From assembly GCA_027001995.1 (NCBI GenBank), contig JALTLO010000141.1:1-21242 (forward strand): 21,242 bases of DNA, in the 5' to 3' direction. Position 1 is the stretch's first letter. Each line of letters begins with the position of its first letter. The position numbers were made by a program, and so were the translations under genes. The notes beneath the pieces are model-generated. The model did no database searches. It was not told the DNA's origin and was given only the letters and a program-made list of their open reading frames with translations. This DNA is from Planctomycetota bacterium (GTDB taxonomy: Bacteria; Planctomycetota; GCA-002687715; DRQF01). Shown one piece after another: positions 1 through 2,617 of the stretch.

Positions 1-662
1 CTTTTAGATTCTCGGTCCTCGAGAGCCGTGTGAGCCCTCTGGGCATTCGCCAAATTGTCATCAGCTTTCTCAAGGTCATCAAGCCAGTCGGAGAGCTTCT
101 TGATGTGGACCTTTAACTTCGCACGGAAATCCGCGGCGAATTGTTTCTTGAGCTTACCGTTGATCCATCTCGTCGAAACTTTCTTCTTGTTCATGACGAC
201 TTCGTTGCCTTTGGCGTCAAGAATAATGAAAGTAGGCGTTCCTTTGAGCAGGTACTTTTGGCTAATCTTTCCTGCAGGAACATCTCGCGCGTCAATTCGA
301 TAGCATCGGAAGAAACGACTGCCGAGGACGAGATTCTCGTCACCGAACAACTTCTTTTCCACCTTGGCATCATCTTCCCGAGCAACATAAATCAACGAAG
401 GCTTGTTCTTCTCTTCCGAAAGCTTGGAGAGTGCGCTGAGAGGCAGTGCTCGTTCCCCATAGTTTTCATCCCAAGAAGTGGGCCATTCAGCATCAATCCA
501 GTTGATGGCAAGTTCACGAGCCACTGCTGGGCTACGATTCCGGCTACCAATAGTTGTTGGGACGCGACCTGCGCCCCCTGGGGTTTTACTCCCGCCTCAC
601 TGGCCGTAAGCGGCAAGTTGCCCCAAAGTGATGAGGGCGACAATGAGAGTCATTTTTCTCAT
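1..662 (-). CDS. Putative exported thioredoxin-like-fold protein with an in-frame UGA at codon 22 (candidate selenoprotein); 3'-truncated by the window edge
   Basis: Manual translation from ATG 662 gives MRKMTLIVALITLGQLAAYGQ*GGSKTPGGAGRVPTT...KNKPSLIYVAREDDAKVEKKLFGDENLVLGSRFFRCYRIDARDVPAGKISQKYLLKGTPTFIILDAKGNEVV..., which stays open to position 1 (about 220 codons, the only stop being TGA at 599-597). An SD-like AAGGAG lies about 10 nt upstream. The N-terminus looks like a Sec-pathway signal peptide. The TPTFIILDAKG segment resembles the cis-Pro/beta-hairpin of thioredoxin folds. A helical, coiled-coil-like region follows. Confidence 0.7.
559..577 (-). promoter_or_regulatory. Candidate bacterial SECIS hairpin
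   Basis: The minus strand reads GGGGCGC-AGGUC-GCGUCCC: a 7-bp stem (one G-U pair) with a 5-nt loop containing GGU. The loop starts 26 nt after the in-frame UGA. It resembles the GCAGGUC apical motif of the E. coli fdhF SECIS (recalled from memory, not aligned). Confidence 0.55.
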
Positions 663-730
663 GAGAAATCTTCTCCTTCGAGATTTGGATTTGACGGACT
701 GCAACGATGTTGCTTAGAGAGCTACCGCAA

Positions 731-759
731 ATTACACGCCAATGAGCCCCAGAGTGCAA
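731..759 (-). promoter_or_regulatory. Possible sigma70-type promoter for the UGA-containing gene
   Basis: The minus strand reads TTGCAC-17 nt-TGTAAT, about 70 nt upstream of ATG 662. Pattern match only. Confidence 0.3.
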
Positions 760-919
760 GTCTCATTTTGCCACAACTGAATTCGGGCCGATAGATGGTT
801 GTGGACCGATACTCACGACCTTGAGTGTATTTATGAAGAAACAAATAAGATGACCAAGCACGCAAGTTGTAAAGTCCGTTTTCCATTTGCTCCCCCGGGG
901 ATTGGCTTTCTTGGAAGAA

Positions 920-2617
920 TCAGTTGCCAGAAGACTTCAAGAGTTCGCACCAAGCGCGCCCGCGGAGGCGCCAGGAGTTAGGGGTCATGGGAATATCGTC
1001 GGCGACTATGAGCCCAGTACTCTTGCGTAGCGCGGCCAGGGCCGATGGCATCAAACATGCAATACCATTCATGAGGTAGTGACTCAGCCAGTAGTGAGCC
1101 CGTTTGTCTCCCAATTCGTTGAGACCCCAGGCAATACCGAAAGCCGCAAATTCTTGGCCGTCAAGCATGGCTTTGTAGACGTTAGGAATGAGGTCTTTGA
1201 AGCCCGAAGCACCCGCAGCCAATCCCGCCGCCATGCGGACCGCTTCATTCTTGTGGGCGAGGGCCAAGCGGAGAGGTTCTTTAATCTTGGGCGACTTGAG
1301 ATGGGCCAATATGTCCAAGCCAGATCTCTTGGCTAAGTGGTTTGGATCTTCGCTTTCCGTATAGACTTTTTCGATGCTCTCAAGGATGGCATCAGTCAAG
1401 AAGGCAAGGGTCAGGTCTCCTGGGAGTTTTTTCTCCCGCTGAGAATAAAACCATGCCACCATCCCTTTGAGCTGGGGGGCAGCTTCTTCGCTGGCCAAGA
1501 CCCATTGAGATAATTCTTTGATCTTGGAGGCCCGAATAGCTTCGGGCAAATCACCAGAACGATTCAGGAGGGCTCCCAAGGCCCAATAGCTGGCGAAGTC
1601 TGGCGACTCCTTGATCATGGCAACCGCTTGATCAAACAAAGGTGCGATGTTGACCTGAGCCAAGAGGATACCAGCATTGTAGCGCACCTTGGATGAATAG
1701 GCGCCATCCAAGTATTCCTTGGCTACTTCCGTGAGTTGAGCCGCCTCTCGCTTGGCGACATCGGAGGATAAGGTGTACAGAAAATAAAGTGCTGCCTCAA
1801 TCGACTCTGCCGAATAGGCATCATGGAGTGCATAGGACTTAATGGCTTCAATACTCTGGGAGCCATGAATCCCCAAATAGGCCATGGAAAACAGAGCATT
1901 GATTTTGATGTACTCTCTTTGATCCTCAAGGATTTCGATGATTCCGGGGGCAAGGCCGGAGTTCTCTTTTTCCCAGAAGTTCTGAGAGTTCATCCGCGAC
2001 AAAGCAGACATAGCCAAAGCCCTTTGGCCAGCATCGACAAGCTTTGAACCCGCGATCCGGGCTAAAGCTGAAACACCGTAGGGCCCCATGGAAGCGAATT
2101 TTCCCAGAGGTAAAAAGCTCGTCGTGAGAGTTGCGCAATCAGCTAAGTCTTTGATTTTCTTGCTGGCGAAATCCCAGGCCGCTGCCTTCATGCAGGAAAT
2201 CCCCTCTTCACCATCAAAGAAATCCATGGGACCATACCAGGAATCATAGGCCGCGCTGAAGGCCAAGCAGGCCAGGGATTCCCGCCGCGTCACCAAAGGT
2301 TCTTGCCGAACAACTTCAAGCATTCTGGGGATAGCCCGGGCCGCATCCATGTTTTGAGCCAGAGCCAGGGCCGCACCATAGCGCACCAAAGAAAGGTCAT
2401 GGGAGAGCCAGGGTGCAAAAAAATCCTCGTCTTCAAGACCAGATTCATCCGCTTTCTTGAGCAAGACACGAACCCCAATCGCCCGCTCTGCGGCGTAACG
2501 GCTGGTCAACATTGCCACCAAACTTGAATCCATGGATGGCTTCGTCGTTGTTTGCCCGCAACAAACAGAGACACAGAGAAGTAAGGGCAAGAAAGGAAAA
2601 AGGACGGAAGGCTTCAT
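920..2617 (-). CDS. Exported HEAT/PBS-lyase-like repeat protein (565 aa)
   Basis: Hydrophobic N-terminal signal (MKPSVLFPFLPLLLCVSVCCG-Q). Recurring HEAT-like helices: VRYGAALALAQ, QRALAMSALS, IKINALFSMA, VRYNAGILLAQ, VRMAAGLAAG. Confidence 0.75.
   Translation of the reverse strand: MKPSVLFPFLPLLLCVSVCCGQTTTKPSMDSSLVAMLTSRYAAERAIGVRVLLKKADESGLEDEDFFAPWLSHDLSLVRYGAALALAQNMDAARAIPRMLEVVRQEPLVTRRESLACLAFSAAYDSWYGPMDFFDGEEGISCMKAAAWDFASKKIKDLADCATLTTSFLPLGKFASMGPYGVSALARIAGSKLVDAGQRALAMSALSRMNSQNFWEKENSGLAPGIIEILEDQREYIKINALFSMAYLGIHGSQSIEAIKSYALHDAYSAESIEAALYFLYTLSSDVAKREAAQLTEVAKEYLDGAYSSKVRYNAGILLAQVNIAPLFDQAVAMIKESPDFASYWALGALLNRSGDLPEAIRASKIKELSQWVLASEEAAPQLKGMVAWFYSQREKKLPGDLTLAFLTDAILESIEKVYTESEDPNHLAKRSGLDILAHLKSPKIKEPLRLALAHKNEAVRMAAGLAAGASGFKDLIPNVYKAMLDGQEFAAFGIAWGLNELGDKRAHYWLSHYLMNGIACLMPSALAALRKSTGLIVADDIPMTPNSWRLRGRAWCELLKSSGN

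Follow-up and report, generated by a model that had tools for sequence, protein, structure and literature searches.

Mammalian thioredoxin reductase carries its selenocysteine (Sec, U) on a C-terminal Gly-Cys-Sec-Gly arm. For prokaryotes, 119 selenoprotein families and subfamilies are catalogued in Table 1 of PMC13188914 (2026), and none of those listed places Sec behind a signal peptide or has an adjacent Sec-Sec (UU) dyad, nor does the text mention Planctomyc, signal peptide, periplasm or secreted. A 2016 study of planctomycete genomes (PMC4807772) reported 13 candidate selenoproteins, one of which is a "hypothetical" protein given without sequence and could be neither matched nor excluded. 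Here we analyzed a stretch of 21,242 nucleotides from a Planctomycetota bacterium (GenBank assembly GCA_027001995.1, contig JALTLO010000141.1, positions 1 to 21,242 of the forward strand; the window below means this whole stretch), whose first 662 bases hold, on the minus strand, a reading frame with a TGA right behind a predicted signal peptide. From the sequence and its homologues, we consider it very likely that 662..3 (minus strand) is one gene in which UGA-22 is read as Sec, and that it encodes an exported protein with a thioredoxin (Trx) fold from an uncatalogued family. That family was found in neither Pfam nor NCBIfam nor the catalogue of PMC13188914, and its placement of Sec is very probably unprecedented for a bacterial selenoprotein. 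Open-access and bioRxiv literature on tandem UGA or vicinal diselenide in bacteria, and on selenocysteine with signal peptides in Planctomycetota, yielded nothing on the family.

The gene is made up of the following features, which are listed in the order of translation.

673..678, minus strand: Shine-Dalgarno-like AAGGAG, read from the sequence, 10 nt upstream of the ATG
603..662, minus strand: start codon ATG (662-660) and predicted signal peptide of the Sec export type, codons 1-20, from the sequence
600..602, minus strand: Gln21, predicted residue 1 of the mature protein, invariant in the 20-sequence alignment A1 of the window's order
597..599, minus strand: in-frame TGA, codon 22, here read as Sec; TGA stands at the homologous site in 65 of 67 genes
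580..596, minus strand: first small hairpin right after the TGA (G-run, A-rich loop, C-run), which recurs together with the second hairpin in the minimum free energy (MFE) folds of 10 close homologues
559..577, minus strand: second hairpin, the candidate selenocysteine insertion sequence (SECIS), with a 7-bp stem, apical loop AGGUC (570-566) and -12.2 kcal/mol, its loop beginning 26 nt past the TGA; the hairpin coincides in part with codons G-A-G-R-V
564..596, minus strand: glycine-rich arm, residues 23-33, predicted disordered by AlphaFold2
522..524, minus strand: GTG, codon 47, a false start used by open reading frame (ORF) finding under translation table 11 and by public gene callers; the database entries P0003 and P0011 start exactly here
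135..509, minus strand: Trx-fold domain, residues 52-176, without CxxC (AlphaFold2, Foldseek, VIA-align)
3..116, minus strand: first part of a long helix near the C-terminus, residues 183-220, interrupted by the contig end (helix 183-219 in the AlphaFold2 model; about 55 more residues expected)

Codons 1-21 read MRKMTLIVALITLGQLAAYGQ, and codon 22 is the minus-strand TGA. In the leader, the basic n-region MRK is followed by a hydrophobic core and the c-region A-Y-G, and downstream of the TGA 198 stop-free sense codons run to base 3. The layout agreed with the original prediction, which had been made from the letters of the window and had named the Shine-Dalgarno sequence, ATG 662, a signal-peptide-like stretch ending in AYG, then Q-UGA and about 200 open codons. 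Since base 1 of the window is also base 1 of its contig (C141 of the source assembly G000, which comprises 204 contigs and 5.2 Mb at 52% G+C), the C-terminus of the gene is missing. Under table 11, the gene falls into a 35-aa ORF (597..704) and a 174-aa ORF starting with GTG (3..524). Its opposite strand carries a 217-aa ORF (141-794, plus strand), probably a shadow of the G+C-rich coding strand.

Homologues were sought with the read-through protein in a six-frame search, and 22 of 41 related genomes, the source genome included, contained one, with counts per taxonomic family within the order of 8/8, 4/5, 7/8 and 1/1. Each match was extended between TAA/TAG stops and a leader Met was then picked, yielding 20 genes, of which one is a paralogue from the window's own genome and the others come from relatives or are the window gene. 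In 19 of the 20, TGA directly followed the hydrophobic leader, the paralogue having Q-C-A, and the tips in the set were Q-U-G (window and one congener), Q-G-U-G, Q-C-U, Q-U-U and Q-U-C. A profile built from the 20 sequences matched at least 80 of 401 genomes sampled across the phylum, with at most six matches per genome. A search of 40 further regions from this sample with the profile, pooled with the first set, gave 67 genes with a definable start; three genes whose start the script did not find were left out, two of which (L040 and L065) visibly have U after a hydrophobic stretch, and the starts of L046 and L072 were set by hand. One or two in-frame TGA codons lay 1-3 residues past a predicted A-x-A or A-x-G cleavage site in 65 of the 67 genes, the sites being placed by eye with the -3/-1 rule. 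An in-frame hydrophobic leader preceded the site in every one of the 67, and in all of them leader, site and body shared one frame without an intervening TAA or TAG. The 65 TGA-containing genes had these tips.

CU: 16 genes
UC: 20 genes
UU: 10 genes
UGU: 2 genes
U-x3-4-C: 11 genes
C-x2-4-U: 2 genes
lone U: 4 genes, the window gene among them

The other two genes were Cys-only, namely the paralogue on contig C193 (L032, QCA) and L070 (QCKC). Recurrence of an in-frame TGA at one site in 65 of 67 homologous genes is more than chance would give. The residue at codon 22 in homologues was TGA or Cys, not Trp, Arg, Gly or Ser, which would have pointed to a nonsense mutation according to the original prediction, and the in-frame signal peptide was kept upstream. 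A search for related loci with the single protein returned one locus, from a Planctomycetota metagenome-assembled genome.

The same gene set yielded several side observations. Twelve relatives have two Sec codons, as UU (L019, L025, L026, L030, L031, L046, L049, L052, L053 and L059) or UGU (L056 and L067); their TGA codons are adjacent or one Gly codon apart, with a single obvious hairpin downstream, so that one SECIS would have to serve both UGAs. Tandem family members on the same strand, a few hundred bases apart, were seen in several distant genomes (L033, L035, L038, L039, L043, L050, L054, L059 and L064), often with different tips, e.g., UC beside U-GGGR-C. The paralogue in the source genome (C193:1643-2575; L032:1318-2268, minus strand) is a 317-aa protein with a signal peptide and Q-C-A in place of Q-U-G; it combines a long Ser/Pro/Gly-rich linker with a Trx-like body as in the window protein and appears at full length in public data (P0012).

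Among 1.84 billion cluster representatives searched with a profile, 1,854 proteins matched at E <= 1e-3, of which 619 did so at E <= 1e-10 and 181 at E <= 1e-30, which puts the family at 619 or more clusters at 50% identity (E <= 1e-10), with up to six paralogues per genome. Most of the best 150 matches listed begin at profile position 45-60, i.e., just past the TGA. Among the matches listed, 19 reach the N-terminus, 10 with Cys at the site where the relatives have Sec and 9 with neither Cys nor Sec in the arm. Full-length homologues with Cys at the Sec site include P0046, P0018, P0034, P0056, P0077, P0101, P0129 and P0026, and such Cys forms are annotated over their entire length, signal peptide included. 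Cys and Sec replace each other within otherwise matching tips (G-C-GGGG-C versus G-U-GGGG-C; G-CCC-GRS versus G-UC-GRS) and within dyads, where QCU alternates with QUU and QUC. Annotated as "hypothetical proteins" of 223-232 aa, the closest database relatives of the window protein (91%, 87%, 70% and 65% identity) come from uncultured Planctomycetota, and their annotated starts are differing, non-homologous codons downstream of the TGA; full-length relatives have 274-304 aa. One of these database relatives, P0011 (91% identical), runs on for 55 residues past the end of the window sequence and so supplies the missing C-terminus. Truncation by gene callers had been foreseen, and indeed the public calls start downstream of the TGA, just as the table-11 split and the antisense ORF were both seen here.

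The machinery for Sec insertion, namely selA, selB, selC and selD, had been named as something the genome ought to hold, and all four were present, the three proteins above curated cut-offs: selA at 511 bits (cut-off 268), selB at 334 bits (cut-off 242; C17:34238-36124) and selD at 357 bits (cut-off 125), the last with an in-frame TGA of its own. The tRNA-SeC is the sole tRNA with anticodon tca among the 43 tRNAs of the assembly, and selA, the TGA-containing selD and tRNA-Sec form a head-to-tail cluster (C148:21750-24413; L009 and L010). All 22 family-positive relatives contained selA, versus 36 of the 41 related genomes overall, and a comparison of two result tables placed selA in 78 of 80 family-positive genomes. 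The remaining two genomes (G083 and G164) have selB above the cut-off, and G083 also has a TGA-containing selD; G164 carries the TGA form of the family, with selB at a contig edge, and neither selA nor selD was found in this 92% complete assembly of 340 contigs. Because selA is common across the phylum anyway (290 of 401 sampled genomes), its co-occurrence with the family discriminates weakly; the related genomes in these counts are not independent either, so the co-occurrence amounts to a check of consistency, not to a strong test.

Assembled Logan contigs were searched for further, independent copies of this DNA. A contig of the probable source run (X1) was identical to the window, TGA included, and the X3 contig, which derives from a second sample of that study and covers 462-886, differed at base 725 alone and left the TGA intact. 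The triplet at 597-599, at which a base difference would have spoken against the original prediction, is thus kept in the assembled contigs of both runs, these being contigs and not raw reads. Pieces from a second study (X2) were 95-99% identical and broke at 523-596; as one piece begins exactly at 597, they say little about the TGA. The X1 contig (2,131 nt) extends about 930 nt past the first base of the window, so the missing C-terminus and the downstream neighbour exist in public data.

A SECIS hairpin after the UGA was also part of the original prediction, and the hairpin at 559..577 fits the bacterial SECIS model of PMC13188914 (published range 16-37 nt), its 7-bp stem, AGGUC loop and 26-nt spacing being compliant, without standing out from shuffled sequence. 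The MFE folds suggest a stem that encloses the region from right after the UGA. Scanning 64 genes with our own implementation of the published model, we obtained a compliant hairpin in 51 (80%), versus 19% of 2,299 control positions taken in frame from those genes, and at <= -12 kcal/mol in 48% of genes versus 4% of controls, the control positions not being matched in G+C to the Gly-rich region. Among 10 close homologues, the wobble bases of the stem were fixed (GGC in 10/10, CGC in 10/10 and GTC in 9/10, with one GTT that preserves a G-U pair) and the two wobble bases of the loop varied freely, with 4 and 3 alternatives. The more distant members of the order have hairpins of unrelated sequence at 18-30 nt. 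In a sister subfamily (19 genes sharing a loop motif), two outer stem pairs covaried, one being CG 9 / GC 6 / other 4 and the other CG 8 / GC 7 / GU 2 / UA 1 / other 1. The covariation score of 0.233, versus 0.083 +/- 0.022 in shuffles (0/500 as high) and 0.02-0.135 in slid controls, is informative for these outer pairs only, since the rows were chosen by a motif that fixes the inner ones.

The protein was modelled with AlphaFold2 from a 60-sequence alignment (A2), with a mean predicted local distance difference test score (pLDDT) of 90 and a predicted template modelling score (pTM) of 0.80. The model shows a leader helix at residues 6-19; the mean pLDDT is 53-59 for residues 1-30, falls below 50 for residues 21-23 and is 88-98 from residue 34 on. 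The best Foldseek match in the Protein Data Bank (PDB) was the C-terminal domain of DsbD (E 4e-4, TM 0.65-0.69 on target), followed by a UAS domain and thioredoxins. VIA-align, which works independently of Foldseek, agreed and gave 1vrs_D at Z 10.9 with a root mean square deviation of 3.1 over 111 residues, all within residues 52-176; many ordinary thioredoxins score nearly as well (Z 9-10), so the DsbD match speaks for the fold and nothing more. Pro143 (236-234), located where the cis-Pro would be expected, is the sole invariant residue among the 60 sequences, and conservation reaches at least 90% in the Sec column and at W55, P88 and F118. Cys120 (305-303) on strand 2, the only Cys of the body, is invariant within the order (A1). 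No Cys or Sec stands between strand 1 and helix 1 in any of the 20 aligned sequences, i.e., CxxC, UxxC and CxxU are all absent there. NCBIfam had no relevant match for any of the 20 members, and Pfam gave only sub-threshold thioredoxin-like matches, among them Thioredoxin_8 (16.6 bits versus a cut-off of 27) and Thioredoxin_2 (3 of 20 members, best E 0.0013). The original prediction had set this protein apart from classical families for having its Sec outside a CxxU/UxxC motif, and both the absence of such a motif from the fold and the absence of a matching family model bear that out.

Several results weigh against reading the locus as a selenoprotein gene with a reactive N-terminal arm, in addition to the limits given above with the co-occurrence, the hairpin scan and the covariation. 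As for the hairpin, the 60 nt after the window's TGA fold no more stably than their dinucleotide-shuffled versions (z -0.55), 60 of 200 of which did equally well or better, and an Rfam scan of 400-760 at E <= 10 returned nothing relevant, only three chance-level snoRNA/leader matches. Thirteen of the 64 genes have no model-compliant hairpin, among them L072, for which the scan began at an upstream TGA assigned in error. The loop of the G-A-G-R-V hairpin starts 26-35 nt after the TGA in five close homologues, at 41-47 nt in four (L015-L018) and at 80 nt in one paralogue (L071); the distance thus exceeds the published range in half of them, and this hairpin may not be the SECIS in all. As for the protein, the window member, unlike most relatives, has no Cys next to its putative Sec, the conservation of Cys120 ends at the order, and one branch of the family (P0030, P0039, P0106, P0115, P0117, P0140, P0148, P0150 and P0159) has the signal peptide and a Gly/Arg-rich arm of the A-Q-R-G-G-G-R-G type with no Cys or Sec, so in some lineages the Trx-like body works without a reactive arm. 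No RNA run is among the sequencing runs listed as holding the window DNA, and the neighbouring genes (amidohydrolase, TonB-dependent receptor and HEAT protein) are uninformative as to function, their conservation not extending past the family level.

By standard bacterial Sec biology, SelB and Sec-tRNA(Sec) would recode UGA-22 to Sec, guided by the in-ORF SECIS hairpin about 26 nt downstream. The leader would direct export through the Sec pathway, and signal peptidase I would be expected to cut between G20 and Q21, after A-Y-G, according to the -3/-1 rule. The mature protein would then start Gln-Sec-Gly-Gly, with its selenol on the disordered glycine-rich arm, and the Gln might cyclise. This N-terminus had been predicted as such; the lone-Sec form Q-U-G-G stands in the reading given here, but the cut was placed by eye and a lone Sec turned out to be the minority type (4 of 65), most relatives having a Sec/Cys or Sec/Sec dyad. 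In the model, the arm is tethered to a Trx-fold domain that appears to have lost CxxC and retained the cis-Pro, and the long C-terminal helix, probably a coiled coil, may drive oligomerisation.

What the arm does is a more tentative matter. By analogy, the terminal Sec could be a mobile periplasmic redox centre with the CxxC-less Trx domain as its docking module, a view that we hold at a little under even confidence. The selenol might cycle with a selenenylsulfide or diselenide, the dyad in most relatives being Sec/Cys or Sec/Sec, and in the window protein either Cys120 or the Sec of another chain might be the partner. The broader proposal, which we put forward with somewhat more reserve, is that of a phylum-wide family of exported Planctomycetota selenoproteins whose reactive centre is the first mature residues (lone Sec, Sec-Cys dyad or adjacent Sec-Sec), carried on a floppy glycine arm and exposed by signal-peptide cleavage. 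Such proteins might act like the Sec arm of animal thioredoxin reductase, in the periplasm and with a body lacking CxxC, and the UU members would have two consecutive UGAs per SECIS and a vicinal diselenide.

Five alternatives were weighed, and they are taken in falling order of probability. The first accepts a real selenoprotein and assigns its N-terminal Sec to the binding or carriage of a soft metal, metalloid or chalcogen (Hg, Cu, As, or persulfide/selenide transfer) instead of catalysis as a disulfide/peroxide oxidoreductase. This is how the CU dyads of SaoL, SaoB, SaoC, HgcA and MbdU have been read, as metal/organometal sites, in PMC13188914 and 10.1101/2022.07.06.499078, and a Trx-fold body without CxxC would agree with it, as would the label of vent metagenome on the runs that hold the window DNA. 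The variable dyad spacing (UC, CU, UU, UGU and UxxxxC) suits a chelating tip as well as a redox tip. Against it, no metal-resistance, transporter or chaperone genes adjoin the gene in the loci examined, no metal-binding family matched in NCBIfam or Pfam, and the window protein, with a single Sec and no neighbouring thiol, is poorly equipped for chelation. We regard a binding or carrier role as rather unlikely.

The second alternative is that UGA-22 is recoded to Cys, Trp or Gly, through near-cognate or suppressor decoding or by a tRNA-Sec-like tRNA charged otherwise. That some homologues have Cys at the site suggests that Cys would be functionally tolerated there. Yet the one tRNA of the genome with a tca anticodon is identified as tRNA-SeC and adjoins selA and selD, the selD of the same genome likewise needs its UGA read as Sec, SECIS-type hairpins follow the TGA in most of the genes scanned (51/64), and TGA terminates many long frames of the window, all of which makes non-Sec recoding very unlikely. 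Reassignment of TGA as in genetic codes 4/25 was considered as well and rejected because, as the original prediction had argued in calling UGA a true stop elsewhere in the window, TGA ends 9 of the 15 complete stop-to-stop frames of at least 200 codons there. Some of these frames are probably antisense shadows; the HEAT-repeat frame 920-2626 (HEAT_2) is among those that end in TGA.

The third takes the TGA as a true stop, which would leave a separate 21-residue leader peptide and a cytoplasmic Trx-like protein starting at GTG 524. Exactly this split is given by table-11 ORF finding, and the database entries are annotated likewise. Several findings speak for a continuous reading frame instead: leader, TGA and body keep one frame in all 67 genes; the peptide between TGA and GTG is conserved in frame (A1), and the model includes residues 34-50, which precede the table-11 start, in the fold at pLDDT 88-95; and the annotated starts vary between homologues, whereas the Cys forms are called at full length with a signal peptide. 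A true stop is highly improbable.

In the fourth, the protein is a lipoprotein, cut by signal peptidase II directly before Sec/Cys and then lipid-modified. Some distant relatives do have lipobox-like strings before the first Cys (F-A-G-C and I-G-G-C). The window reads A-Y-G-Q-U, with a Gln at -1 that is invariant in the order and off the lipobox consensus; because of this Gln, the lipoprotein reading was rejected for the window gene. Most U-first relatives have Glu or Asp at -3, and cleavage one residue earlier, at A-x-A or A-x-G, suits signal peptidase I in every case, so that we give lipidation scarcely any credence. The fifth, a pseudogene or a TGA created by assembly or sequencing error, is effectively refuted by the conservation of the TGA in genes from dozens of genomes; the X3 contig with its intact TGA and a downstream frame open for 198 codons also speak against it, even granting a fragmented assembly and a check that rests on contigs.

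Within the window's taxonomic family, an amidohydrolase and a TonB-dependent receptor are conserved neighbours of the gene. The next gene upstream in the window (920-2617, minus strand) encodes a 565-aa protein with a signal-peptide-like N-terminus and HEAT_2 repeats, and it adjoins none of the 59 other homologous loci.

If UGA-22 is indeed read as Sec, the bacterial selenoproteome gains a large and fully misannotated family, the public entries examined being shortened "hypothetical proteins", and the family would point to selenium-based chemistry in the periplasm of planctomycetes, a phylum in which 290 of the 401 sampled genomes have selA. Sec at the extreme N-terminus of an exported protein would constrain how SECIS, signal peptide and SelB cooperate in co-translational targeting, and the UU and UGU relatives would be natural test cases for two UGA codons per bacterial SECIS. 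Sec-blind gene prediction loses the signal peptides of such proteins and mislocalises them as cytoplasmic.

Among the systems to which the family can be compared, the arm of thioredoxin reductase shares with it a Sec that usually stands by a Cys, is flanked by Gly and sits on a flexible terminal arm outside the fold, relatives of the window protein having Q-C-U-G. The arm here differs in being N-terminal and made by signal-peptide cleavage, on an exported protein without a flavin domain; the window protein lacks the adjacent Cys (Q-U-G-G), and some relatives have Sec-Sec. The C-terminal (gamma) domain of DsbD, the best structural match, is likewise a periplasmic Trx-fold domain; the identity is 14-16%, and unlike DsbD the window protein has no CxxC, membrane domain or DsbD alpha domain. 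The CU-dyad selenoproteins of the SAO/Hgc group (SaoL, SaoB, SaoC, HgcA and MbdU), as described in 10.1101/2022.07.06.499078 and PMC13188914, resemble the family in their adjacent Cys-Sec dyads, in the signal peptides that several of them have and in database entries that are typically cut at the TGA. They differ in having unrelated folds and neighbourhoods, dyads that are internal or C-terminal, and no sequence match to it in NCBIfam. The nearest in overall design are the Sec-thioredoxin, DsbA/DsbG-like, thiol:disulfide interchange and UGC-containing TlpA-like proteins in Table 1 of PMC13188914, which share a UGA recoded with a hairpin downstream, a thioredoxin-like fold, Cys homologues and, often, export. 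In those proteins Sec replaces a Cys of the CxxC/UxxC motif inside the fold, whereas the putative Sec of the window protein sits on a disordered N-terminal arm of the mature chain, 30 residues before the domain.

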